IMG/VR virus record: IMGVR_UViG_3300014968_000001
Span: 1-64,000 of that record
Origin: a virus
Taxonomy: Duplodnaviria > Caudoviricetes
DNA length: 64,000 bases
Strand: one strand, 5' to 3'
Shown here in pieces: positions 4,095-55,307 of the stretch. Made by a program: the position numbers and the translations under genes. The notes below the pieces were generated by a model. The model made no database searches. It was not told the DNA's origin and was given only the letters and a program-made list of their open reading frames with translations. The stretch's first letter is position 1. The number at the start of each line of letters is the position of its first letter.

Positions 4095-5650
4095 ATCATT
4101 TCGGGTTGCTTGCGTTGTTTGTTCAACTTCTGAAAAAAGGCGATGCCTTCGCGTTCCGTGGCGTTCTGCCAGTTCGCATAGCCCATCCGCTTCATTAACC
4201 CGCGCACTTTATGGCTGGCCAGTTTGAGCGGCTTGGTCTTGAAATAAATGTCGAGGATTTTACTGGCGTGATCCCAACTCTTAACGCTGTCCACATCAAT
4301 CTTGGCTTCTTCCAGATATTTCCGCTGCTTGTCCGTCACAGGCTTCTGTTGCCACGGCATGATGGGTTCGTATTCGGCCAGTTCCAGGTTGCGATGTTGC
4401 ATGGCGAAGGCTTCGGCGGAAATCAGTTGGGCCTTGCGATGAGCATTTTCTTCCAGCTTTTTACGCAGCGATTCTTCCCGCATGGAAGTGGCTTCGCCGG
4501 CAACTTCAAGCAGGTCCAGTTGACCGGCGACTTCCGCCGGCAAGCCAGCGTCTTTTTCGGTCAAGGCGGTGATAGTATCCCGTTCCTCGTCAGTTTGAGC
4601 CAGGAGACAGGCGGGACGGCAGATGAGGCGTTTGGTGGCTTGGTAGAGAAAATCCAAAAGGAGGCAGTCGGATTTTCCGGGGGCGAGGCGAGTGCCGCGG
4701 CCTACTTGCTGTTGATAGAGAGTTACACTTTTGGTCGGGCGGCAGGGCACCAGGCAGTCTGTTTCTGGGATGTCGATACCCCTCGTGAGCAGCATGGAGT
4801 TGGCGAGAATATCGGTTTGACCAGACCGAAACTTTGCAATCTTAGAAACGCGGAGCGGGTCATCGCCGTAGACGTAATCGCAGTTCAATCCGATCCCGCG
4901 CGCAATTTCGGTAAATCGTTCACAGGTTTTTATCAGTGGCATGAAAACCAGCGTGCGGCGAAACGGAGCATGAATCTCAATCTGTCTGGCGATTTCCTCA
5001 AGGTGCGGTGTGATAATGGCATCTGCTTCCTCGTCGGTAAAATCCGTGCCAGCGCCCAAAGCACCGACGTTGAGCTTTATTGGAAGCATCTGAATTTTTA
5101 TCGGCGACAGGAAGCCTTTCTTAATCAGGCTTTTGAGGTTTTCCAGCTCTATGATCCAGTCGTAATAAAGGCCAAGATTTTTTTTATCAGTCCGATGGGG
5201 TGTCGCAGTCCACGCGATTACGCGGGCCTTCTCGTCGAAATGTTTCAACACGGTTTGAAAACTGGGCGTGATTGATTTGTCGCCTTCGTCCACGATGATG
5301 AGGTCAAAGGCGTTACGCGGCCATTTCTCCAACCGTCCGCCCATTGATTGCACGGTGGCGAACACAACATTGGCTTTATTCGACGCCCTAAATTCAGCCT
5401 GTTCGACTTCACCCGTGATTCCGCAAAGGCTTTCCAGCCGCTCTTTGGCCTGCCACGCGAGGTCTTTCTGATCGACAAGGAAGAGGGCGGACTCAAAATT
5501 GTTCACCGCCTTTTCAATCTCCCAAGATGCCATCGAATTTTTCCCACTGCCGGTCGGCGATATAACCGCAATCTTCCTGAACCCATCTGCGAACGCCTTG
5601 TCGATGGCGTTGGCGTAGTTGACCTGGTATGGGTGGGGGGTGTGTTTCAT
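4091..5650 (-). CDS. Superfamily II DExD/H helicase (ResIII/helicase-C)
   Basis: Q-motif PHPYQ, SPTGSGKN, IIVDEGD, TATPHR, LTRGIDIP, QQVGRGTR; start set at MKHTP after AGGGGG. Confidence 0.92.
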   Translation of the reverse strand: MKHTPHPYQVNYANAIDKAFADGFRKIAVISPTGSGKNSMASWEIEKAVNNFESALFLVDQKDLAWQAKERLESLCGITGEVEQAEFRASNKANVVFATVQSMGGRLEKWPRNAFDLIIVDEGDKSITPSFQTVLKHFDEKARVIAWTATPHRTDKKNLGLYYDWIIELENLKSLIKKGFLSPIKIQMLPIKLNVGALGAGTDFTDEEADAIITPHLEEIARQIEIHAPFRRTLVFMPLIKTCERFTEIARGIGLNCDYVYGDDPLRVSKIAKFRSGQTDILANSMLLTRGIDIPETDCLVPCRPTKSVTLYQQQVGRGTRLAPGKSDCLLLDFLYQATKRLICRPACLLAQTDEERDTITALTEKDAGLPAEVAGQLDLLEVAGEATSMREESLRKKLEENAHRKAQLISAEAFAMQHRNLELAEYEPIMPWQQKPVTDKQRKYLEEAKIDVDSVKSWDHASKILDIYFKTKPLKLASHKVRGLMKRMGYANWQNATEREGIAFFQKLNKQRKQPEMI

Positions 5651-5654
5651 GTTA

Positions 5655-5951
5655 TTACCCCTTTTTAAGTCCAAGAATATTAGCTATAATCTCGGTTCGC
5701 CGCTCGTTTCCTTTTGCAAATTCTTTGACGGCAATCATCATCACGCTTTCCAATTCATCCGTTATTGGCTTTTTTAGAAGTTTGATGTGGATGTAAACCT
5801 TCACGGCCCAAATCAAATGAGCTAACCTCAGTCTGCGCTTAATGATTGCGTACATCCCGTAAGTGAGAAACGAAAACGATGTCAGGGCCACACATATAAA
5901 AAACGAGTAGCAGAGCGCGTTAACAATCCAATGCGGAATAAATATGTTCAT
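5655..5951 (-). CDS. Small membrane protein
   Basis: N-terminal hydrophobic helix; CAGGAG RBS 7 nt upstream; first gene of the leftward operon. Confidence 0.7.
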   Translation of the reverse strand: MNIFIPHWIVNALCYSFFICVALTSFSFLTYGMYAIIKRRLRLAHLIWAVKVYIHIKLLKKPITDELESVMMIAVKEFAKGNERRTEIIANILGLKKG

Positions 5952-5964
5952 TCAATCACTCCTG

Positions 5965-6078
5965 AAATCGCCAGTCGGTTTTGCGGTGGTAGAAAGTTGC
6001 CGTGAGGCAGCAAACTGGCGCGAGCCAACTGGCGATTTGAATAGTGTTCGATTGTTTCCATAGGGCTACCACACCCAT
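5965..6078 (-). ncRNA. Structured 5' leader with putative kissing loop (element A)
   Basis: 14-bp stem 5965-5978/6025-6038 ending at the RBS; upstream GGG-TGTGGTAG-CCC hairpin whose loop is complementary to CTACCAC inside the stem's loop. Confidence 0.6.
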
Positions 6079-6099: not shown

Positions 6100-6128
6100 A
6101 CCGTAGGGAGAATTCTTAGAGGCGTAAA
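6100..6128 (-). promoter_or_regulatory. Leftward sigma70-like promoter of helicase/MTase operon
   Basis: TTTACG-17-TACGGT on the minus strand; AATTCTTA direct repeats overlap it. Confidence 0.6.
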
Positions 6129-6183
6129 GAAAATTCTTAAAATAATTTTACCGGCTGAGTCTGGTCGCTGCGATTAACCCTGT

Positions 6184-6465
6184 ATGAATCGACAACTGAC
6201 TCAAAAGGAAAAAGACTGGATACATAAATCATGGCTGTGCTACAAACAGGTGATGAACAAAACTCAAATCATATCAGCCCTGCACGCCATCAGCATGGAG
6301 AACGAAATGCAGGCGGCTAGCGAACATCAGACAAGAGTGGCGACGATGCTTTCGGATTTGAGTCGGAAGATTGAAAGCAATGGGGAGTTCCCGCATCCGT
6401 GTGAATGGATTGAGAAGATGCCGCTGCTGGTTATTCACGAGACGTTTCCGAAGGTGATTTTATGA
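6184..6465 (+). CDS. Hypothetical protein
   Basis: 93-aa ORF, ATGA-coupled to the next gene. Confidence 0.6.
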   Translation: MNRQLTQKEKDWIHKSWLCYKQVMNKTQIISALHAISMENEMQAASEHQTRVATMLSDLSRKIESNGEFPHPCEWIEKMPLLVIHETFPKVIL

Positions 6466-6806
6466 ACCGCCGATCCTTCTTTCGAAAACTTGGCCTGACT
6501 ACTGGTGTGGCGATAGCTGCGCCCGTGGCGATTCCGAAGTTGTTGGAGGCTGTGCCAAAGTCGGAGGTGTGGCGTTACTCAATGGACGGTATATTCGCTC
6601 AAGCGCACGAGCTTTGGTTGAGTCGTCCCCCATCCAGATATATTGACGTGTACACCGACCGCGAGACAGCAGACCAAATTAAAAAGGGCGTGGCTCGCTA
6701 TGAGTGGAAAGAAAAGTATCGCCAGGAGAGAATTGCTCGGTCGGCAAACAATAGACGGGAGGAATGGGTGCAAGTCCCATACAGTTCGGCAACTCTGTTA
6801 GTGTAA
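6462..6806 (+). CDS. Protein with twin-arginine (Tat)-like signal
   Basis: MNRRSFFRKLGLTTGVAIAAPVA. Confidence 0.65.
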   Translation: MNRRSFFRKLGLTTGVAIAAPVAIPKLLEAVPKSEVWRYSMDGIFAQAHELWLSRPPSRYIDVYTDRETADQIKKGVARYEWKEKYRQERIARSANNRREEWVQVPYSSATLLV

Positions 6807-6854
6807 TAGTAGCAGCCTGAAACGCCCGTAAAGACGGTATAAAAGTTGTCGATG

Positions 6855-6957
6855 GACTGGTCGTTGCGCGAAAGCGTGGTTTACTTGTACTGTAGCAAGT
6901 CGCCGTTGAAACAGCACGGTGAAAGAGCCGAAGGCTTCGAGACTTCAACGACCAGTC
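6855..6957 (+). ncRNA. Candidate multi-branch structured RNA (element C)
   Basis: Perfect 12-bp closing stem gactggtcgttg/caacgaccagtc enclosing 4 hairpins (cgc-gaaa-gcg, acttg/caagt, ccgt/acgg, agcc-gaa-ggct), then a T-run. Confidence 0.55.
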
Positions 6958-6960
6958 TTT

Positions 6961-7212
6961 TTACCACTGGATGAACGGGTGCCCCGTTAAAGATAAAAGA
7001 AAATTCAAGGCGATCACGACCGCAATAAACGCGAAGAAAATCATCCAGATAGTCAGCACCACGGCGGGCACGCCCATCTTTTTGAAAATCCAATCGCCAA
7101 ACCACCAGACGATAGCGAGGCATACGGCGATTATGAGGACGAAGAAAACGTTATGAACGAGGTCGCTTCCGCTACCGACGCGAGCAACAGCATCAGCCAA
7201 AATAGTATTCAT
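6961..7212 (-). CDS. Two-TM small membrane protein (Thivi_2564-like/holin-like)
   Basis: Two hydrophobic helices separated by KKMGVP. Confidence 0.7.
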   Translation of the reverse strand: MNTILADAVARVGSGSDLVHNVFFVLIIAVCLAIVWWFGDWIFKKMGVPAVVLTIWMIFFAFIAVVIALNFLLSLTGHPFIQW

Positions 7213-16388: not shown

Positions 16389-19300
16389 ATGCCATTTACC
16401 CCGCCCAATTCCATTGATGAACTGATTGCTGACGATTCTCCGCCGCCAGCAAAATATAATTTTACCCCGCCGCAATCCGCCGATGACGTGACGGATATTT
16501 CAGCACCGCCGGATTCCAGTTTCAGACCGCCCGATGCCAGCAAAGGCATAAAAGAGGACAGCAAATTAGCACAGAGAGCCAAAGAGTTGGCCGATGTACA
16601 GGAACAAAAATCGGAACCGACCACGCCGTTGGGGGCGGGGACAAAGGAATTTGTCCGGGGCATTCCCGCGTTCGCGCATCGTGGCGGGGCGGTAACATTG
16701 GCGGCGATGTCGGACGCGGCGGCTAAAGCCTACAACTTCGTTAATCCCGACAATCCGTTGCCGGATACCAGCGTGAGTCAATTTTCACAGAATCCAACTG
16801 CACCATTACCCGCCGAGGAAGGCGCGGAAGAAATGCGAGGTATTGGACGGTTCGGTCAGAAAGCGTTGCAGGGCGCAATCAAGGTCGCGCCGGCGATTGG
16901 CGCAAGCGCGGGGATTGGCGCGGTGGGCGTGGCCCCTGAGATTGCCGGTGCTATTCCATTTGCTTTTGATGCCAATGGAAAACCCGATCCCGTGAGCGCA
17001 GGGCTGATGCTGGCGTTGCCCGGTATTGGAAAATTGGGAGAGAAAGGCGTGGCGAAGTGGCTGGACAGCACGGCGGGTTACGATACTGCGGAGAAAATCG
17101 CTGGCGTAATCAAAGATGCCACGGGCAAACCGGTATCGAAAGACACAGTGGCGGCATGGCTTAAGGCGGGGGGGAATCAAGTCGCGGCAAACGCAGCTTT
17201 GATGGCGTCCCAAATTCCGGACATCGCCAAGTCCGAAAATCCGAAGCAGGCATTTTTAGACGCATTGGCGGGAAACCTTGCTCCGTCGTTACTGGCTTTC
17301 ATGGGGCACGAGCAGGAGCCGGGAAGTCCTGATGCCCAAAAGACCGCCGCATTGAATTCCGGCAAGTGGGTAGTGCCAGGAACCGAGCGGCGATTGATTG
17401 GAACAGAAGAAAAACGCAACATTCAACCACCAACAGAAGGAGGGCCAAGTGCCAGTGGAATACGAGAAGATACGGGACAGCCTGCGGAAGCGGGGAAAAC
17501 CATTGAAGGAAGCAAAACGGATAGCGGCAATGACGTGGAACAAACGCCATCCGGACAATCCGAATCCGTGGCGGAACGAAAAGAAGTCCCGCCGGAAACG
17601 CCGCAACCGCCTTCGGGAAATGTCCCACTGACACCAGCCGTTGACAGGGCTCAACGCCTCGAAGATTTGCGCAAGATTCCAAACCGAACCCCGGAACAGG
17701 AGCAGGAATTTCAGGCGTTAGTAGCCGAATCCGGTTCGGTTCAACAGAAGATGGCGGCGGAGATTGCGAAGGTTAAAGCCAATGAAAAACCAACACCCGC
17801 AGTTCCACCCCAAGAAACGCCGCCGCCAAAGCCGCCTGATACTCCTGCTGTTGCGCTGACTGAAATGCCGAGTTTGGCCCTGCATGTGGAGGGAGAAAAG
17901 ACCGTTCGCCAGGTTAAGAACATGGAGGAAGCGGCGGCACTGGTTGACCAGTTGCGCGAGGCGTCAGACATGGGTAGCAGTGAATTTCCGCAGATGACCA
18001 TTGTTGACACCAAGACCGGAAAGCCCGTGGCACGGGTCAGTTACAATGGACGAATTTGGGGATTGGACGGGAAGGAAATTGAAAGGGCAGACAACCGTGG
18101 ATATGGCAAACCTGATGCGATTGACGTTTCAAAAGAGACGCCCAAACAGCCCATTTTTAAACCCGCAAAAATCGAACGCCCTTGGGACATCATCGACGAA
18201 ATCGAAAGCAAACACGGCACGATTTTAAACAAGAAATCCAGCAAGCCGGGGCACGAGGATTATTACAACACGGAAGGTTACACCCGCGCGGCGAGCGGTG
18301 CGGGCAAGCGGTTGTTCTCTGCAAAAGGCAGTGGGCCGGATAAAATATTGCAGGCGTTGATTGATTCAGGTGCGATGCACCCGGACGCGACCGTGGACGA
18401 TTTATGGGAGGCGATTGACCGGGCCAGCAAAGCGCGGGGCGCACATTATCGCGGAGAATTGCCGGAGCAAAAGGCGAACAAATTCTACGCGGCGATGGAC
18501 AAGGCGTTGAAGGATAAAAAGTCGCAGAAATTGACTGTGGGCGAATTGCAGGTTGGCGACCAGTTCACTTTGGGTAAGGAAAAGTTCACAGTCAAATTCA
18601 TCGACCCCGATACAGGCGAAGTGACGGTTCAGGATGGCAAGAAGTTTGGGACGCAGACGATACCGGACGGGGCGGATATTGCCGTGGATGCTGGAAGCTA
18701 TAAGGCGGCAAAGCCGGAGACAGCATCGGAAGACCCGTTTGCTGTGGAAAACACCAAGACACCACCAAAACTCCGTCCCGGCGAAAAAGTCGGTGAAATG
18801 TTTCAAGGCGGCGACCAGCCGTTCAATTTGTCCGGCGAAACCACCAAGGACATCGAGCGCATTCAGAAGGAGAAAGAGGCGGCAGAAAAAGCCGCAGCGG
18901 AAGCGAAAGCGTTGCAGGAAAAGCAGCAGTTGGGATTGCCGGGGACGGAGACTAAATCGACTGGCCCACAAAAATATCGTATCGGCAAAAACCCGTCCAC
19001 CTACGAAATCGTCGAACGCTTGCCCGCCAGCGATGTTGAAAAAGAGAACGGCGAACAACCGGTCAAAATCAAGAACGACCGGACGGGCGAAGTCAGCACG
19101 GTTTTGGAACAGGATTTGACGGCGGTGCAGAGTCATGCGGGCGAGGAAAAGGCGGCGAAAGGACCATCGCTGGACGACCAGTTGAAGGCTTACGGCATGG
19201 ACCCGGGCGGTTTCCAGAATGCCGCGCAGAAACGCGAGGCAATAAAGCGGGCGAAGGCGAAGGGGGATAAACCTAAATTCTCCGTTCAAGCCGATCCCAA

Positions 19301-22300
19301 CGCACCGCCAATTCAGCAAGGCGCAGCAACCGGCGTTGAAGGCATCGGCCAATTGCTCAGGCAGGCGGGTTACGACGAAAAGACCGTCGCCGTGGCGCAA
19401 CGGATATTGGATAGGCTGGATAAAACCGGCGCATTGGATTTTAGCAAGTTGACCCTGCAATTGAAGCAGCAATTGGAATATGGCGCGGCTGGTCTGGCGC
19501 ATGTGAGCCACGACCTGATTCAATTGGCATCGGGCGCGAACGCCACGACGTTTCCGCATGAACTGTTTCACTTTCTATTCGAGCATCTGCCGGCGGAGCG
19601 ACAGGCGGAAATCAACCAGTATAGGGTGGCGGAATTGCGGAATATTCTCGGTGACAATATTCCGAAGGAATTGGCCGATGGCACGTTGACAACCGAAGCG
19701 TTTCTCAAGGCGTATCCGGATGACGACCACCAGAGGCTTTTGTATCCGTTGATAAACAACAGCGAATTTTTGGCCAACTTTGCCGGCAAAGAGGCAGTCA
19801 GCGATTACGAAAAGGCGAACGACCCGTCCAAGTGGAACCAGTTCAAGAACACCATCAAACAACTGGCTCGGATTGTGGTGCAATCGGTTCGGGGCGCGTT
19901 GCGGTTGCGCCCGGACATGCGGCAGATATTCGACGAATTGCAGGCAGGCAAATGGCGACCGGACGCGGAGAGCGGCAAGGCGTACGAGATGGCTAGGGAA
20001 GCGCAGGCGCAAGCACCGCGCACGCTCAGGGAATATGAGAAGGAAAAGGCGTTCAACGAGCCGTTGGTGGCGGAGCGCACATTGGGGGCGTACGGCGACA
20101 TTGCCGATTTGAAGAACAAATTCGCCGATCAATTGGGCATCAGTGAGCAGGCCCGTAAAAACCTGAACCTGCCGAGCCAGGATTTGTTGAGCGCCGTGGC
20201 CAGTGGAGACGCCCGATTGCCGCGGGTGGCGTTCGACAATTACAATCAGGTGCGGATTTTAACGGAACACGCGGGGCCGGGAGCGCGATGGTCGGTCATT
20301 CGGGATGCGTGGCGTGGGGCGACCGACGAGTTGAATCGGATGGCCAATACCGAGAAGAAATTCCAGCGTCAACAGGAATACATCACGAGTAAAGGGTTTC
20401 GGGACAAGATGAAGCGGGCGTTCCAACGCAAGGCAGACGCCGATATGTCGCAGCGCACGTTGACCACGTTCAAGCATCAAATTACCGAGCAAGCGGGATT
20501 AATCATCAAAGCGTTGAATGAGAAGGGAAAGACCGACGCGCAAGTGGAACAATTGCGTCAGGATTTGGCACGGGTTCAAAAGTTGGGCGAGTTCGGGGAA
20601 GCGGTAAGACAGCGGGTGCAGGACATCATTGACACCGTGGCGGCGACCGAAGGCGGTCTGGATTTGCTCTATAACGGCACGGATAAGACCGGCACGAAGA
20701 TTTACAATGCCTATTTGGATTTGAAAGAGTCCACCGCCAAGCAACCGCCATCAGCAGGATTGGCCGGGACTGTCGATGAACGGTTTTTAAGCGCCGAAGA
20801 TAAGGCGCGGGTTGCTGCGAGCAAACTGCCATTGGTGAGCGAGGATCACAAACTATTCGCCAAGCTCGCCGCGCAAGTGCTGGCCGCAAACACGGATTTG
20901 AGGCTGCAACTGGCCACCATGCAGCATTTCAATACCGATCCTGATTTCGCCGGGAAAGTCACGGCAGTCGGGGAGAAGTTTCGGAAGCAGTACGAGAAAG
21001 ACCCGACGAACGCGGTGAAGCAGATGGTCAAGGCCACGGAAGGATTGACGAAGAAAGCGTTGGACGCGCAGACAGCATGGTTGCGGGTGAACGCCGATGT
21101 CACAAGGGAATTGAAGAAATATCAGGCGTTGGACGAAGCCACTACGGTTGACCGGATGGTTCGGGAATCGTCCCAGTGGAATCAGCGCATGAACCTGATT
21201 TCTCGGGATGCGGGCAGCATCGAAGTGCCGCCATCCGAGCGTGGGCGGGATACCAACCCGATTTCACCGTCGAACGTCTGGAACGAGTTCATGGGCCGGG
21301 GAACTATGGTTGGGCCGAGTGGTGCTACATACGAGATTGATTTGGGACATACTAAGGCAACCGCCGATGCCGCGCAACTTGAGACGCAGAAATACCTGAA
21401 CGACATCAACAGTTGGTTGAACGATCCGAAGAACGCCACATCGCCGTATCGGGATTATTGGCAGATGCGCTTTGACTTCGCCGATGCGTCATTGAACGTG
21501 TCCCTGGCGTTGCGACCGCCGACGGTGGAATCGTTGTGGTGGAAGAATCCGGCCACGATCCCCGAATTCTTTTTCAAAGGGGCTTCCCTGCCGGACGCCA
21601 AGATTTCGAGCATGGCCAGCGCGAACTACGCCCGTGCATGGGTGGTGGCTGACCAATGGTATAACGGCGCCATGCCAAAAATCATCTACGCACTCCGCAA
21701 AGGCATGGGCAGTCACGGCAAGGAGTATGACGCGAATTTCGACATCAAACGGTATCAGCGCGACGTGATGGACCGGCTGGCATCGGAATATCGCCACGGC
21801 AAAGCGTTGGCGGCGGGCGACCGGCTGAACAACGGTGTCGTTTTGACACAGCAAGACATCAAGGCGTTGGAAACAATTGGGTTTCACGTCAATGAACTGA
21901 TGAACCTGCAACGGAACATCGGGCGCGAAAAACTGATGCCCAACACGCTGGTCATCGATGAATGGGCAAAAGGTGCGTGGGGATTGCGCGCGCCGCAGGA
22001 ATTGGGAGCACGCAAGGGGACGACGTTGCCGCATGAATTCTCACAACGGGCAAAGACACTGGCGCGACTGGTGGCGGGGCCGCAGGGGTTGAAATCGGGT
22101 GATTTGGCTGGTCTGGAACAATTGCTCGATTCACAGGACAATTTCACCGAGTTCGTCCAACGATTCATTGCCGAACGGCGGGCGGATTATTCGACACAGA
22201 CGCCGTTCGAGGACATCTATAAAGACATCGCGCAGAAATGGCGGGACGGAGCGCCGGATGCACCGCAAACGATTCAGGAGATTGTTGACTACATCGACTC

Positions 22301-25058
22301 CAACACGACGAGCGATTACGACAAGGACAGCATCAAGGGTATTTTGTTGGGCGAGATGGACGGTCAGATTCGGAAGTTCTACAAGGATTTTGTGGAGCCG
22401 AACAAAAACTCCGCCGGGGCCACTACGGTTGAGAGCGTGCAGCGGGACACCGCTTTCAGCAAGGCGTACCAGAAAGATGTCGGAAGTTCGTTCTATTACG
22501 ATTACGGAGCGGTGACAGCTCCGGAAATCCGCAACATGGGCGTGGACTCGACCAACTTCCATTTGGTTCGACTGGTCAACACCCTGGATGCACTGGTGAA
22601 ATCGTATGACACCGCCATCGCGCAGATTGAAGGCGTGTCCAAAGACGATCAGAAAGCGTTCATCAAAAAGGGCATGGTGGCGTTTCGCAGCGGTGAAGAT
22701 TTTCGGAATTGGGAACGGTTGAAAGCGGAGCGTCGCATCGCCCAATATTTCAAGGAATCATTGCCGCAAGCGTACGGCAAAGACCAATCGTTGCCACTGG
22801 AACTGTTTAGCAACGTCAAGCGGGTGACGGGCGATGCCATTTCTACGGCGTTGAGCGGGTTGGGCACGTTCCTGAATGTGTCCTTTGGTTCGCCGATGAA
22901 GATGATGCTGACGTTGGGCGCATTGGATCGGGTGTATGGGATGACCTATTTCCGGGGCGTCCTGAACACGATGGCCAGCGTCATGCGCTACGGTTTGGTT
23001 GGAGTGCCCAAGACCGCGTATAAAATCGGCAAGATCGGGTTTGACTTGCATTCGGTCGGATTGAAAGAAAAAGCGGCGGAGTTCTGGATACGCGGATTGC
23101 AGGAAGCGACCGAAGGATTGTTTCGCCAGTCGGAGTTCTACGACCAGCAATACAAGTATGGGTTGGGCTTTGCGAACCCGGTTGGGGAACGAATCGCCAA
23201 CATCATCGCCATGCCCTACACGCACGGGATGGGTTACGAAGCGAAATTTTCCGATAACCCGCTTCTTGCCGGCGGACAGAAGTTGGGATTTCGCGCGTTG
23301 AGTCTCGCCGAAGCGCCGTTGGAACTGGTGAAGTCGTATTTCCCACAATTCGGTTACGTGGTGAGCTACGATGCTGCGGCACGGACGGCGGGACAGATTA
23401 TTGACGGCATCGCAGGGCAGGCGCGGCGATCATTCGATTATCTGGAAAAGAGCGGCAAACTGGCGCAATGGGATTTGAAGGACATCAAAAGTCCGAAGAA
23501 CCAACAGATACCATCGGAATACGTCATCCCGGGTTTCTTCACCAAGAAAAGTGCCACCGCACAGAATTTCGCGGCGTTATGGTGGTCACGGGCGATTGAC
23601 CAGCCGTTCCACGAGACGGTGTTGAACTACTGGAAAAAGCTCAGTGAAACCAAACCGGAAGACAGGGACAAGGTGAGCTTTCTCGCAGCGGACGTGGCTG
23701 ATCCCGCGAAGGTAAAACAGGTTGAGGACGCGCGCGGCGGGGCGTTGTTGGGTGTGGCGGTCAAGGACGTGCATCATGCCAGCCCGGAGAATCGCCCGTT
23801 GGAACTGCGCAAGAACCAGTTGTTGAGCGCCATCTTCCCGTTGGCCGGTTGGTTCAGTCATTCCGCCAGGGGCGTGTTTCAAGCCGTTGGAAAAGCACCC
23901 ACCGACCCATATAGCACCTACCGCCGATTGGCGGTCATCGCAGGCATCACGGCGTTGAACGTGGCGGCAATGGGCATCGTTGGCGGCGAGGTCGAGAAGG
24001 AAATCAAGCGGTTGATGTATAAACTCGTGTATCACGAGGAATTTCCCGCGAAACAGATTTGGCGCGGTGGCAGCGCAAAAGAAGTCGCGCAGATAGCGTT
24101 GATGGACGATACCAGCTTCATCCCGTTGGCGCATGATGTCGCGGCGATCCTGTTGGGCACAAAACGCGGCGGCGAAGGATTGGGCGGGACAGTGTTCGCC
24201 TTGAGCAAACTCAATTCGATACTGGATTATTTCAAAGGCGTCATCAAAACCGGACAACCGACGTATGGCGTGGCGAACCTGTTAAAGACGATGGCGCCAA
24301 GCACCAAGGTCATCATCAATCAACTCGCCAGCCAACAGGGATTGATTGCGGCTCGAAATGCCAAGACGTTGCTGGATTTGTATGGGCCGGAAGATTTGCG
24401 CGGCAAAGGTCAGGAAGTGACGTTCCATGACCCGACACCGTTGACGCCGTATCGAAACGATTTGCGGAACGCGATATTTTCGGGCGATGCCGAAGGGGTG
24501 AAAGTGGCGGCGAAAGCGTATCTGGACAAGGCAGTGGCGATGGGCAATGAACCGGAGAAAGCGCAGTCATTGTTGCGGTCCACGATGAGCGCCTTGAACC
24601 TGATGAAGATGGGTGGGAAGAAGTTGACGGACGACCAACTCGCAGCGTTCATCGGAAACCTGACAGACGCGGAAAAGGCACAAGTCAATGCGGCCAATCA
24701 GAATTGGGTGGGGGCAGAGAAGGCGTTGGGGATGGAAGGAACGTTGACCGCGCAACCGCCGGGTGGCAGCGCAGGGCGAATCGGCGGCAGCGGTGCAGGC
24801 GTGACCAGCGCATACGACACAGGCGGTCGAACTGGGAAACTGCGACCGTTGAGCGCAGGCGGTGGCTCATTCCGACGTGCAGCGATTGGTGGTGGAACAG
24901 GTAGATTGCGTCGGATGGCCGGTGGACGCTCTACGAGTGCGCCGTCGAAGGCCACCGCCATGAAAGCACCGAAGCTGCGTCGGACGACCAGCCATTTTCG
25001 AGGGGGCACGACGAACAGGTTGCGGAGTCATCATAAGAAGAACGCTTTGTTGGCGTAA
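16389..25058 (+). CDS. Giant internal virion / large polyvalent protein (2889 aa) with HExxH motif
   Basis: FTPP N-terminal repeats, hydrophobic segments, VARVSYNGRIW domain, SH3-like segments, FPHELFHFLF, helical C-half, Gly/Arg-rich tail. Confidence 0.85.
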   Translation: MPFTPPNSIDELIADDSPPPAKYNFTPPQSADDVTDISAPPDSSFRPPDASKGIKEDSKLAQRAKELADVQEQKSEPTTPLGAGTKEFVRGIPAFAHRGGAVTLAAMSDAAAKAYNFVNPDNPLPDTSVSQFSQNPTAPLPAEEGAEEMRGIGRFGQKALQGAIKVAPAIGASAGIGAVGVAPEIAGAIPFAFDANGKPDPVSAGLMLALPGIGKLGEKGVAKWLDSTAGYDTAEKIAGVIKDATGKPVSKDTVAAWLKAGGNQVAANAALMASQIPDIAKSENPKQAFLDALAGNLAPSLLAFMGHEQEPGSPDAQKTAALNSGKWVVPGTERRLIGTEEKRNIQPPTEGGPSASGIREDTGQPAEAGKTIEGSKTDSGNDVEQTPSGQSESVAERKEVPPETPQPPSGNVPLTPAVDRAQRLEDLRKIPNRTPEQEQEFQALVAESGSVQQKMAAEIAKVKANEKPTPAVPPQETPPPKPPDTPAVALTEMPSLALHVEGEKTVRQVKNMEEAAALVDQLREASDMGSSEFPQMTIVDTKTGKPVARVSYNGRIWGLDGKEIERADNRGYGKPDAIDVSKETPKQPIFKPAKIERPWDIIDEIESKHGTILNKKSSKPGHEDYYNTEGYTRAASGAGKRLFSAKGSGPDKILQALIDSGAMHPDATVDDLWEAIDRASKARGAHYRGELPEQKANKFYAAMDKALKDKKSQKLTVGELQVGDQFTLGKEKFTVKFIDPDTGEVTVQDGKKFGTQTIPDGADIAVDAGSYKAAKPETASEDPFAVENTKTPPKLRPGEKVGEMFQGGDQPFNLSGETTKDIERIQKEKEAAEKAAAEAKALQEKQQLGLPGTETKSTGPQKYRIGKNPSTYEIVERLPASDVEKENGEQPVKIKNDRTGEVSTVLEQDLTAVQSHAGEEKAAKGPSLDDQLKAYGMDPGGFQNAAQKREAIKRAKAKGDKPKFSVQADPNAPPIQQGAATGVEGIGQLLRQAGYDEKTVAVAQRILDRLDKTGALDFSKLTLQLKQQLEYGAAGLAHVSHDLIQLASGANATTFPHELFHFLFEHLPAERQAEINQYRVAELRNILGDNIPKELADGTLTTEAFLKAYPDDDHQRLLYPLINNSEFLANFAGKEAVSDYEKANDPSKWNQFKNTIKQLARIVVQSVRGALRLRPDMRQIFDELQAGKWRPDAESGKAYEMAREAQAQAPRTLREYEKEKAFNEPLVAERTLGAYGDIADLKNKFADQLGISEQARKNLNLPSQDLLSAVASGDARLPRVAFDNYNQVRILTEHAGPGARWSVIRDAWRGATDELNRMANTEKKFQRQQEYITSKGFRDKMKRAFQRKADADMSQRTLTTFKHQITEQAGLIIKALNEKGKTDAQVEQLRQDLARVQKLGEFGEAVRQRVQDIIDTVAATEGGLDLLYNGTDKTGTKIYNAYLDLKESTAKQPPSAGLAGTVDERFLSAEDKARVAASKLPLVSEDHKLFAKLAAQVLAANTDLRLQLATMQHFNTDPDFAGKVTAVGEKFRKQYEKDPTNAVKQMVKATEGLTKKALDAQTAWLRVNADVTRELKKYQALDEATTVDRMVRESSQWNQRMNLISRDAGSIEVPPSERGRDTNPISPSNVWNEFMGRGTMVGPSGATYEIDLGHTKATADAAQLETQKYLNDINSWLNDPKNATSPYRDYWQMRFDFADASLNVSLALRPPTVESLWWKNPATIPEFFFKGASLPDAKISSMASANYARAWVVADQWYNGAMPKIIYALRKGMGSHGKEYDANFDIKRYQRDVMDRLASEYRHGKALAAGDRLNNGVVLTQQDIKALETIGFHVNELMNLQRNIGREKLMPNTLVIDEWAKGAWGLRAPQELGARKGTTLPHEFSQRAKTLARLVAGPQGLKSGDLAGLEQLLDSQDNFTEFVQRFIAERRADYSTQTPFEDIYKDIAQKWRDGAPDAPQTIQEIVDYIDSNTTSDYDKDSIKGILLGEMDGQIRKFYKDFVEPNKNSAGATTVESVQRDTAFSKAYQKDVGSSFYYDYGAVTAPEIRNMGVDSTNFHLVRLVNTLDALVKSYDTAIAQIEGVSKDDQKAFIKKGMVAFRSGEDFRNWERLKAERRIAQYFKESLPQAYGKDQSLPLELFSNVKRVTGDAISTALSGLGTFLNVSFGSPMKMMLTLGALDRVYGMTYFRGVLNTMASVMRYGLVGVPKTAYKIGKIGFDLHSVGLKEKAAEFWIRGLQEATEGLFRQSEFYDQQYKYGLGFANPVGERIANIIAMPYTHGMGYEAKFSDNPLLAGGQKLGFRALSLAEAPLELVKSYFPQFGYVVSYDAAARTAGQIIDGIAGQARRSFDYLEKSGKLAQWDLKDIKSPKNQQIPSEYVIPGFFTKKSATAQNFAALWWSRAIDQPFHETVLNYWKKLSETKPEDRDKVSFLAADVADPAKVKQVEDARGGALLGVAVKDVHHASPENRPLELRKNQLLSAIFPLAGWFSHSARGVFQAVGKAPTDPYSTYRRLAVIAGITALNVAAMGIVGGEVEKEIKRLMYKLVYHEEFPAKQIWRGGSAKEVAQIALMDDTSFIPLAHDVAAILLGTKRGGEGLGGTVFALSKLNSILDYFKGVIKTGQPTYGVANLLKTMAPSTKVIINQLASQQGLIAARNAKTLLDLYGPEDLRGKGQEVTFHDPTPLTPYRNDLRNAIFSGDAEGVKVAAKAYLDKAVAMGNEPEKAQSLLRSTMSALNLMKMGGKKLTDDQLAAFIGNLTDAEKAQVNAANQNWVGAEKALGMEGTLTAQPPGGSAGRIGGSGAGVTSAYDTGGRTGKLRPLSAGGGSFRRAAIGGGTGRLRRMAGGRSTSAPSKATAMKAPKLRRTTSHFRGGTTNRLRSHHKKNALLA

Positions 25059-25119: not shown

Positions 25120-25238
25120 GAGCGTGTGCCTGAAACGTAAAACAGGAAGGAAGCCAATCATAGGGAACAGCCTATGACGCCGATAAGATACTGGGACCTG
25201 TTATCCTTGTATTGCAGGTTCAAATCCTGCCGCGCTCA
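25120..25238 (+). ncRNA. tRNA-like RNA (119 nt) with ~50-nt expanded anticodon region
   Basis: Acceptor GAGCGTG/CGCGCTC-A, T-arm GCAGG-TTCAAAT-CCTGC, D-like arm CCTG/CAGG, no encoded CCA; inner hairpin TCATAGG/CCTATGA. Confidence 0.7.
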
Positions 25239-26318: not shown

Positions 26319-26500
26319 AATCCCCCGCCATCCAAACCGCCGACCAAGCCATTCGCATGTATTCCGCGATTGAAGCCTTGCTAAACCAGTTCAAAAGCGA
26401 GAACCGCAAACGCCGTCAGAAATGCGCGAACTGCGGTGCGCCGATCCTGAAAGGCGATACCAGTTGCGTGGCTTGTGGCGCGACGGATTTTGAGACATGA
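26315..26500 (+). CDS. Small protein with zinc ribbon
   Basis: CANCGA..SCVACGA; ATGA-coupled on both sides. Confidence 0.65.
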   Translation: MKSPAIQTADQAIRMYSAIEALLNQFKSENRKRRQKCANCGAPILKGDTSCVACGATDFET

Positions 26501-33878: not shown

Positions 33879-33883
33879 TTTTG

Positions 33884-33962
33884 TCCTGCGAGTGGTGGTG
33901 AAAAGGCGTGAGCCTACTAGGACGCTGGATTGCTTGAGAACATCCCACCACCACTCGCAGGA
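33884..33962. ncRNA. Long hairpin with internal GTGA-tetraloop stem (element B)
   Basis: Perfect 17-bp IR tcctgcgagtggtggtg/caccaccactcgcagga enclosing aggc-gtga-gcct. Confidence 0.6.
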
Positions 33963-53806: not shown

Positions 53807-54462
53807 TTTGCACCATCACAACCAGCCGCCGCCCCAAACTATTCAAACGCACTATCGAGAGCGCCCGCGCGAACATGCGGGATTTCAGTTTCATTCAAGA
53901 GATGGCTATTTTCGACGATGGCAGTCCGCCCGAAGACTTGGACGCGATGAAAGCCGTGGCGCCGCAGTTCGCCACTTGGGAGCATTGCGATGAACCGCAG
54001 GGGCATGTGGCGAGTTTGAATCGGGCGTTGGAATATCTAAGGCGGTCAGGGCAGGAGTTTGCGTTGATGGCAGAGGACGATTGGCTATTCACGCGGTTTT
54101 CGTGTCCCCTGCTCGCCAGCCTTGATGTGCTGATAAACAATCCGAAGGTGGGCCAGGTCTGCCTTGGTAGAATTGACATGCGCTTTGGCTGGCGCGGCTT
54201 CACCGAGACGGGGACGATGTTCACGATCCGCGACAAACATTTCGGGCCGGACAATTACCCCGCGTTCACTTTGAATCCATCCGTTGTCCGCATCGAGGCA
54301 TTGCTGGCAGTGGGCGAGTTCAAGGCGGTAGAAGGCTTCGAGCGGGAGTATGGGGAGCGTTGGCTGGCGGCGGGATGGGACACATCAGATTTATTTTCGC
54401 CTCACTTGGTTCATATTGGCGACGGGCAGAGTGCGTATGATCTTAATGGATTTTTAAGATAG
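53803..54462 (+). CDS. GT2-family glycosyltransferase
   Basis: ITTSRRP, IFDDGS, LMAEDDW, FTLNPS, HIG. Confidence 0.85.
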   Translation: MICTITTSRRPKLFKRTIESARANMRDFSFIQEMAIFDDGSPPEDLDAMKAVAPQFATWEHCDEPQGHVASLNRALEYLRRSGQEFALMAEDDWLFTRFSCPLLASLDVLINNPKVGQVCLGRIDMRFGWRGFTETGTMFTIRDKHFGPDNYPAFTLNPSVVRIEALLAVGEFKAVEGFEREYGERWLAAGWDTSDLFSPHLVHIGDGQSAYDLNGFLR

Positions 54463-54488
54463 ACATGAATTTATTTTTTATTATTATT

Positions 54489-54600
54489 TTGTTGTTCGGC
54501 GTGATACCCGATGAAACAACAAAACCAAATCTGCACCCCGTCGCAAAAGACAACGCTTCCTCGGCGTTGTGTATCACCTTTTGCGGCGCGGGTGCTTTGG
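54489..54600 (+). ncRNA. Structured 5' leader with putative kissing loop (element D)
   Basis: CGG-CGTGATAC-CCG hairpin; loop complementary to GTATCAC (54571-54577) inside stem 54525-54549/54578-54600, which overlaps the GGAG RBS. Confidence 0.6.
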
Positions 54601-54608
54601 AGATGTAT

Positions 54609-55307
54609 ATGCCAGAGATAAAATCAATTTCGTTTGATGCGCTTCCCAAAAGGAAAGGGAGAACCGACCTTTCCGGCTCTCGGTTCACGAGGTGGCAGGT
54701 TGTGGGCCCTTATGGAATGATAGGCCCAAAATTGCATTGGGTGGTAAAATGTGATTGTGGCAATTTCTCGGTGGTTATGACTTCCAATTTGAATCAAGGG
54801 TTAAGCCGATCCTGTGGATGCCTTCAAAAAGAAACAGCCAGCAAAACCATGCTTGTTCACGGTCAGGGAACTTTCGGTAAAACAAAAACTAGAGAAAATA
54901 GAATTTGGGTTAGTATGATAGCCAGATGCACTAATCCTAACTCCGCAGGCTGGAAAAATTATGGAGGGAGGGGGATTTCTGTTTGCGACAGGTGGAGGCA
55001 TTCTTTTCTAGCGTTCTTTGAAGATATGGGAAAATGCGCTGATGGCTATTCGTTGGAACGTCGGGAAAATAATGGTAACTACTGTAAGGAAAATTGTTAT
55101 TGGGCGACTCGCAAGCAACAAAATAACAACAAGCGAAGCAATGTGATTTTGCAGCACGAAGGTATTTCGCTAACAATATCTCAATGGAGCGAAAAAGCTG
55201 GAATCAATTATGGCACCTTACGCTCCCGCCTGCGAGACGGATGCAGTGTCGCAGAGGCACTAACTAATCCGGTGGCTCATAAATCCAGCAAGCGGAAAGA
55301 TGTGTGA
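54609..55307 (+). CDS. Free-standing HNH-type homing endonuclease
   Basis: WVVKCDCG..SRSCGC, W..M..RC..YGGRGI..CDRW, SLERRENNGNY..NC.WAT..Q.NN. Confidence 0.85.
   Translation: MPEIKSISFDALPKRKGRTDLSGSRFTRWQVVGPYGMIGPKLHWVVKCDCGNFSVVMTSNLNQGLSRSCGCLQKETASKTMLVHGQGTFGKTKTRENRIWVSMIARCTNPNSAGWKNYGGRGISVCDRWRHSFLAFFEDMGKCADGYSLERRENNGNYCKENCYWATRKQQNNNKRSNVILQHEGISLTISQWSEKAGINYGTLRSRLRDGCSVAEALTNPVAHKSSKRKDV

Follow-up and report, generated by a model that had tools for sequence, protein, structure and literature searches.

Two elements in this phage DNA, A on the minus strand before the replication operon and D on the plus strand before an HNH endonuclease gene, are folded mRNA leaders of an uncatalogued family that occurs in soil and peat phages. 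The conclusion is supported by the predicted fold, by a long-range pairing that is kept while its letters change, by a fixed geometry relative to the downstream start codon, and by the arrangement of a short upstream open reading frame (uORF). The stretch of DNA analyzed (the window, 64,000 nucleotides) is the first 64 kb of a virus record of 72,495 bases.

The sequence features and coordinates that a preliminary description gave for element A, on the minus strand, were all found in place. The uORF, absent from that description, is included here:

6100-6128, minus strand: promoter-like TTTACG-17-TACGGT (TTTACG 6128-6123, TACGGT 6105-6100), from sequence reading
6063-6076, minus strand: hairpin H1, 3 bp, GGG-TGTGGTAG-CCC, from reading and predicted fold
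5948-6061, minus strand: uORF of 37 codons (ATG 6061-6059, TGA 5950-5948), its TGA overlapping the main ATG (ATGA)
6025-6038, minus strand: 5' arm of stem S, predicted fold
About 5996-6013, minus strand: inner hairpin within stem S, predicted fold
5986-5992, minus strand: target CTACCAC, 34 nt 5' of the start codon, in an unpaired part of the long hairpin's 3' side
5965-5978, minus strand: 3' arm of stem S, predicted fold
5949-5964, minus strand: Shine-Dalgarno (SD) sequence CAGGAG (5964-5959) and ATG (5951-5949) of a 98-aa ORF, from sequence reading

The minimum free energy fold of A (RNAfold) is a small hairpin plus a long hairpin (-46.1 kcal/mol, z = -2.6). Seven bases in the loop of H1 (GTGGTAG, 6072-6066; probability of being unpaired, P_unpaired, 0.79) form the 5' kissing partner of the target CTACCAC (P_unpaired 0.80), and the predicted energy of the loop-target duplex is -9.1 kcal/mol. 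H1 is separated by an A-rich linker of 24 nt from stem S, in which AAATCGCCAGTTGG pairs with CCGACTGGCGATTT to give 14 bp, one of them G-U. The main start is spaced CAGGAG-7-ATG, and its SD/start region is predicted to be partly paired (P_unpaired 0.33). The 98-aa ORF is the first gene of an operon that also encodes a ResIII/DEAD helicase, a C5-methylase-like protein and a DnaB-like helicase. The predicted transcript start is about 17 nt 5' of H1, whose GGG lies about 20 nt past TACGGT. CGCCAGT occurs twice in A (6034-6028 and 6020-6014), as the preliminary description had observed in proposing two alternative folds; the duplicate is there, and the switch would be peculiar to A, being absent from the other members described below.

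The A promoter TTTACG-17-TACGGT is too weak to be detected by the consensus promoter scan. The promoter block is 84-85% identical in the two closest related contigs (L004 and L005) even though the leader behind it differs, and another related contig (L210) has the identical -10, TACGGT. Direct repeats of the TAAGAAnTTTC type lie on and to either side of the promoter (window 6106-6160, minus strand); they are kept in L004 (4790-4830) and L005 (735-775) and resemble repressor operator half-sites. Beside the promoter lies a divergent 93-aa gene (6184-6465, plus strand), which is conserved in L004.

The preliminary description also held that element D shares the architecture of A, and on this point fold and reading agree:

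54496-54611, plus strand: element D leader, on the same plan as A, from sequence reading and predicted fold
54460-54487, plus strand: promoter-like TAGACA-16-TATTAT, from the consensus scan (10/12 matches), ending about 8 nt before H1
54496-54511, plus strand: hairpin H1, TCGG-CGTGATAC-CCGA, predicted fold
54511-54621, plus strand: uORF of 36 codons, whose ATG overlaps H1 by its last base and whose TAA falls 10 nt beyond the HNH start codon
54533-54549, plus strand: 5' arm of the long stem (17/18-nt stem), predicted fold
54550-54570, plus strand: inner hairpin ACAACGC-TTCCTCG-GCGTTGT, predicted fold
54571-54577, plus strand: target GTATCAC, 31 nt before the start codon, P_unpaired 0.98
54578-54595, plus strand: 3' arm of the long stem, predicted fold
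54599-55307, plus strand: GGAG (54599-54602) and HNH endonuclease gene with ATG at 54609 (phrog_374, E 1e-61)

The kissing partner in D is GTGATAC, loop bases 54501-54507 of H1. The main start is spaced GGAG-6-ATG, with its SD only half paired, and there is an extra in-frame ATG at 54603.

Could two such elements arise by chance? A loose descriptor (a 7-nt complement, a 3-bp hairpin and an 8-bp enclosing stem) matches the genome at 3 sites, and 40 shuffled versions of it at 1.95 sites on average. Because shuffled sequence yields the loose pattern about as often, A and D alone are not significant; significance comes from the geometry and from conservation in relatives in which the pairing letters have changed. 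Related leaders were chosen by synteny with the helicase gene and not by loop-target pairing, so they provide an independent test of the pairing.

Helicase homologues in metagenomes form a graded series of identity. The helicases of L004 and L005 are 85% identical to that of the window; these contigs lack the 98-aa ORF, and their leader, which cannot be aligned with A, has a like architecture, with H1 GCCG-CTTAGAACC-CGGC and the pairing code TAGAACC/GGTTCTA. L058, a soil contig, has the 3' end of A (TTTCAGGAGTGAT) and the code GTAGCAG/CTGCTAC, which has the core GTAG/CTAC in common with the pairing of A and differs from it by a shift of register around that core. L207-L211 have the helicases nearest to that of L058 (80-86% identity); all five have a gene-free leader of 170-270 nt, and the leader plan was found in each. 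L211 has the same code as L058. The codes of the others are CGTTGAAAA/TTTTCAACG (L209, 9 bp), TGGAAA/TTTCCA (L210), TGGACG/CGTCCA (L208) and, in L207, a two-part pairing of 7+8 bp, CCGCACA-AAA-TGAAACCA / TGGTTTCA-CCC-TGTGCGG. Together with A and D there are eight independent codes of 6-9 bp (7+8 in one member), which is an upper count as leaders of the L058 clade may share ancestry. Over these eight codes the loop-target pairing is kept by compensatory change, in agreement with what had been proposed from A and D. The loop consensus proposed at the same time, YGTGRTAS, breaks down beyond those two elements: the eight codes have no loop consensus. A and D differ at 2/7 positions, so that copies in one cell would not cross-talk.

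The longest complements in cognate leaders are 7, 7, 7, 7, 8, 6, 9 and 6 nt, against mostly 4-5 nt in non-cognate combinations of leaders, 7/86 of which reach 7 or more. They were again mostly 4-5 in 42 controls from the wider helicase clade, loci with a small ORF upstream and without such a fold. The distance from the 3' end of the target to the main ATG is 34, 31, 33, 33, 32 and 35 nt in six of the eight codes; in L207 the target is 37 nt, and in L208 25 nt, before the start. From H1 to the target the distance varies, from 70 to 118 nt. Loops and targets are predicted to be unpaired at 0.5-0.98, compared with a leader mean of about 0.4, and the duplexes have predicted energies of -4.6 to -9.1 kcal/mol (-21 in L207). 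The pairing is only 6 bp in two members, and H1 of L210 is absent from its minimum free energy fold. Substitutions between L004 and L005, and between L058 and L211, fall mostly in loops or else keep or restore pairs: the pair changes comprise G-U to A-U, one double change from G-U to C-G, and a 1x1 mismatch that became C-G. One change was contrary, an A-U pair having become a G/G mismatch.

Among helicase relatives at 50-64% identity, the gene sits in mid-operon and a leader is absent. The element is absent from the 80 IMG/VR and 80 genome loci of the wider helicase clade that were used as negative controls. The relatives of the HNH gene of D (L001-L003, about 41% identity) have other leaders, not of the D type. 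The occurrence of dissimilar leaders behind conserved promoters and before conserved helicases suggests that leaders are exchanged as a module.

Database searches place the leaders in no described family. A cmscan of the whole window against Rfam at the gathering score gave no leader match, and nothing relevant was found around A and D at E<=10 or in seven related loci at E<=1. Leader DNA had no match in near and distant searches of the phage collection; neither did IMG/VR protein scans with a single helicase or DnaB protein, and an exact-pattern scan for the conserved promoter block returned 0 matches. Descriptor scans of about 0.5-1 Mb of loci and four whole related phage contigs gave many chance matches and no further member; the ones examined turned out to be arrays of iterons or operators, or else ordinary hairpins. 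A scan for the shared 3' end TTTCAGGAGTGATNNNATG gave 25 matches, every one an ordinary SD region lacking the fold. The idea that the loops mimic an SD sequence and the targets an anti-SD was dropped, as it fits D only. The MAFFT alignment of the leaders is not structural. Repeated boxes were seen in other early leaders and intergenic regions of related phages (L127:1000-1200; L118, minus strand, near 4623; L081:5640-5760), listed as CGTAGTCACG twice plus its complement, arrays of TTGCACAC and arrays of GTCCCGAAA; these look like different long-range pairing systems or iteron/operator systems.

A uORF of 35-45 codons runs through the whole structure in 10/10 leaders. Its ATG comes shortly after H1, overlapping the last base in D and lying 1 to about 25 nt past the 3' arm elsewhere. 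Its stop codon falls on the main start codon (ATGA) in A, L004/L005, L207, L208, L209 and L210, that is in 6/8 independent leaders, and 4 nt before the main start in L058 and L211. In A a second open frame (6078-5956, 40 codons) ends CAG GAG TGA, an end that resembles that of L058. The uORF has no SD sequence in any leader, while AGGA(G) precedes most of the main genes. The main ATG of L004/L005 and of L210 has no SD in front of it, consistent with a dependence on coupling. P_unpaired of the main SD/start region (-14..+3) is 0.21-0.39 in A, L058, L211, L208 and L209, and 0.42-0.65 in D, L004, L005, L207 and L210.

Is the uORF translated, and does it matter? The uORF peptides are unrelated between leaders and none is conserved. 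L058 and L211 differ in their uORFs by 3 synonymous and 9 non-synonymous changes, which indicates that the open frame is kept and not the peptide; any selection would be on the open frame and not on its product. Dinucleotide shuffles recreate the uORF arrangement in 1.7-4% of trials per leader. That figure has to be set beside two others: over eight leaders the stops in the three frames number 0, 7 and 5, A and L209 being open in all three, and by looser criteria an ORF of 25-60 codons ends near the helicase start in 20-33% of related loci without the structure. Since the leaders are stop-poor and small ORFs occur at control loci, the uORF evidence is weaker than the shuffle test implies. On balance we lean towards a uORF that is translated and functional.

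How might such a leader work? Our analysis points to a translational-coupling gate for the replication and nuclease genes, a reading to which we would give about even chances. From the predicted promoters, the transcript would start between a few and about 20 nt before H1, and the loop of H1 would pair with unpaired bases in the 3' side of the long irregular hairpin. Ribosomes would reach the main start mainly by translating the uORF, thereby unwinding the hairpin, and the pseudoknot between H1 and target would tune the coupling of uORF and main gene. It could do so in either of two ways: by holding the 3' arm and the ribosome binding site (RBS) open for re-initiation, as in the IncI-alpha and IncB rep genes, or by locking H1 over the SD-less uORF start, so repressing. 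Each leader copy carries a private pairing code. If ribosome footprints are a guide, a ribosome positioned on the stop/start codon would reach with its 5' edge approximately to the target, given the spacing of 31-35 nt. There are points contrary to a coupling gate. The uORF is without an SD although the main genes mostly have one, and no route for ribosome loading is evident; and masking of the main RBS is not universal (P_unpaired 0.21-0.65).

The closest parallels are in plasmids. In the rep genes of IncI-alpha, IncB and IncL/M plasmids, translation and termination of a leader peptide expose a distal sequence (PMC4705826 section 7; PMC8053102), a pseudoknot leaves the initiation site accessible to re-initiating ribosomes, and the loop is also the object of competition by an antisense RNA (PMC4705826, PMC8053102). 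As in these I-complex and IncL/M leaders (ColIb-P9 repZ with RLP/repY; pMU720 repBA), a 5' loop of the phage leaders pairs about 100 nt downstream, upstream of the SD (PMC4705826, PMC8053102); a short leader ORF, whose translation in the phages is predicted, passes through the structure and ends at the main start; a hairpin carries the main initiation region at its base; and the peptide sequence is unimportant. The differences are nonetheless substantial. There is no sequence relation, and these are phages, not plasmids. The phage codes are free over 6-9 bp, whereas the plasmids have a fixed GGCG/CGCC; the phage target is predicted to be already unpaired and lies 10-20 nt before the SD, whereas the plasmid target is immediately beside it; and the phage main genes have ATG and mostly a good SD (not L004/L005 or L210) in place of a weak GUG signal. 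The phage device also precedes an HNH endonuclease gene, unlike the plasmid leaders.

The plasmid systems furthermore have an antisense (Inc) RNA, for which our consensus scan found no promoter in the phage leaders: a conserved antisense promoter-like site was not found inside them, by a scan that cannot exclude an antisense RNA. Weak antisense-strand sites near the main start are present only in A (5920-5948, plus strand) and L207. The site in A, TTAACA-17-TATGTT, matches 9/12 positions just inside the 98-aa ORF; it would yield an RNA antisense to the entire leader, and it is not conserved in the other leaders. With no conserved antisense promoter, the regulatory input of the plasmid systems appears to be missing. 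The phage leaders would work like the I-complex rep leaders, but several defining features of the latter are wanting or doubtful, and we set them apart as a new RNA family.

Two further groups deserve comparison. In plasmids R1/IncFII (repA-tap) and IncI2 (repA-repR), too, a replication gene is translated only by way of a short overlapping leader ORF, but a long-range pseudoknot is absent there, and control is exerted by an antisense RNA (CopA) or a ProQ/FinO protein (PMC8053102). The leaders of T-even homing endonucleases (I-TevI/II/III, segB, Aeh1 mobE) resemble D in being structured and directly before a nuclease gene, free-standing or intron-borne, and their hairpins are thought to restrain translation (PMC2988022). 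Those hairpins hide the SD and carry an internal late promoter, whereas the only promoter-like site of D is upstream of H1; they also lack a kiss and a uORF, both of which D has (PMC2988022).

The alternatives to a translational-coupling gate fall into those that accept the pairing and one that does not. The leader might be a pure RNA element in which the uORF plays no role, a cis- or trans-acting riboregulator of the P1/P7 c4 (Rfam C4) or P4 CI type; its hairpin, possibly processed out, would pair with the target, switch folds, and control downstream expression or immunity. The likeness is genuine, for in both cases a phage early leader has a short loop-target complementarity whose letters differ between relatives while the pairing is kept. 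The compensatory changes, the position right behind an early and apparently operator-flanked promoter, the missing SD of the uORF and the scarcity of stops in all frames are all as such an element would have them. The c4 and CI targets, however, overlap the RBS or start of the controlled gene (immI) or else affect termination, and the RNA there undergoes processing and has its sites of action outside its own hairpin. In the phage leaders there is a single loop, the target is inside the adjacent hairpin with a uORF running through it, and the target ends 31-35 nt before the ATG, that is 10-20 nt 5' of the SD and clear of the RBS. Infernal against Rfam gave no c4 or c4-like match even at E<=10, the kinship with C4/CI suggested in the preliminary description is not borne out, and the leaders are not members of the c4 family. 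Moreover, the different codes of A and D within one genome mean that one RNA could not serve both, and the uORF start and stop positions are kept across leaders that cannot be aligned. A riboregulator of this type is in our judgement unlikely. Of the cis-acting RNA switch family first envisaged, the cis-acting structured leader family stands; the pure RNA switch is less favored, as a uORF of 35-45 codons points to ribosome-coupled control.

It is somewhat less likely again that the element serves mRNA stability or processing, its hairpins blocking decay that depends on the 5' end or serving as an RNase III site, while the kiss would make the fold more compact. In their length (14-23 bp) and their internal loops the long hairpins do resemble phage RNase III sites, and H1 is within about 5-20 nt of the predicted transcript start, but the 31-35-nt spacing between target and start, the uORF that ends on the start codon and the private codes would all go unexplained. 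Transcription attenuation coupled to uORF translation, Rho-dependent or hairpin-dependent, with ribosomes deciding whether RNA polymerase reads into the operon, is very unlikely. Leader-peptide attenuators do have a uORF near the promoter and ahead of a long hairpin, as is the case here; against this, no long hairpin is followed by a U-run and the scans gave none of the leaders an intrinsic terminator, the uORF stops at the main start and not within a competing helix, and the uORF peptides lack a codon bias of the sensing type. Finally, the complementarity could be fortuitous in ordinary GC-rich 5' UTRs, or the uORF an ordinary small upstream gene. The frequency of the loose pattern in shuffled genomes and the small ORFs common before the helicase in relatives speak for this, yet the pairing persists in eight leaders although its letters change, its distance from the start is fixed, control loci do not show such pairing, and substitutions in close pairs preserve helices but not the peptide. 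We consider this last explanation disfavored and very improbable.

A more far-reaching version of the coupling gate is that the leaders are addressable gates acting also in trans, such that a leader fragment in excess or processed out (H1, or a hypothetical countertranscript) would silence only those leaders having the same code, and phages would swap the module to escape. This is a speculation that we hold to be improbable. Were it true, it would amount to an RNA-based, incompatibility-like exclusion among co-infecting or resident phages, directed at replication genes and homing nucleases.

The cis mechanism, if true, would mean that phages use a logic of leader peptide and long-range pseudoknot known so far from plasmid copy-number control, with a freely reprogrammable code and no obvious antisense partner, before both replication genes and a selfish nuclease gene. 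The leaders would then represent a new structured-RNA family for Rfam and a naturally occurring collection of orthogonal RNA-RNA codes that could interest synthetic biologists. They would also open a way into early gene control in the phages of Verrucomicrobiota, which have hardly been studied. Helicase relatives of the L058 type are found almost only in Verrucomicrobiota genomes and MAGs (L212-L268; Chthoniobacter, Luteolibacter, Akkermansiaceae), which indicates that the hosts of the phage group are probably Verrucomicrobiota; Chthoniobacter flavus Ellin428 and Luteolibacter pohnpeiensis are among the named genomes. Both leader-bearing clades come from one sample series (SRR29078xxx, ERZ25039xxx) of soil and peat metagenomes.

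Several other features of the record were observed along the way. Its G+C content is 53%, and its first 123 bases are repeated at the end of the 72,495 bases; this overlap marks the record as a circular or terminally redundant assembly of about 72,372 bp. Most of its large proteins, including that of a 2889-aa ORF (16389-25058), have no PHROG match. The sole Rfam match in the window is a tRNA (25120-25238, plus strand, 32.7 bits), which covers 119 nt for a model of 71 positions and so is a tRNA-like gene that contains a large insert. At window 33880-33960 the divergent terminase and structural operons have between them a perfect 18-bp inverted repeat, TCCTGCGAGTGGTGGTG ... CACCACCACTCGCAGGA, whose architecture is unlike that of A and D. 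Between convergent genes at window 6800-6970 (element C of the preliminary description) there is a multi-branched fold with a 12-bp closing helix, which forms on either strand (-48.6 and -52.4 kcal/mol). The uORF scan gave one false positive, a 47-codon ORF at window 26345-26500 (plus strand) that has an ATGA overlap with the next gene and two CxxC pairs, and resembles a zinc-ribbon microprotein.
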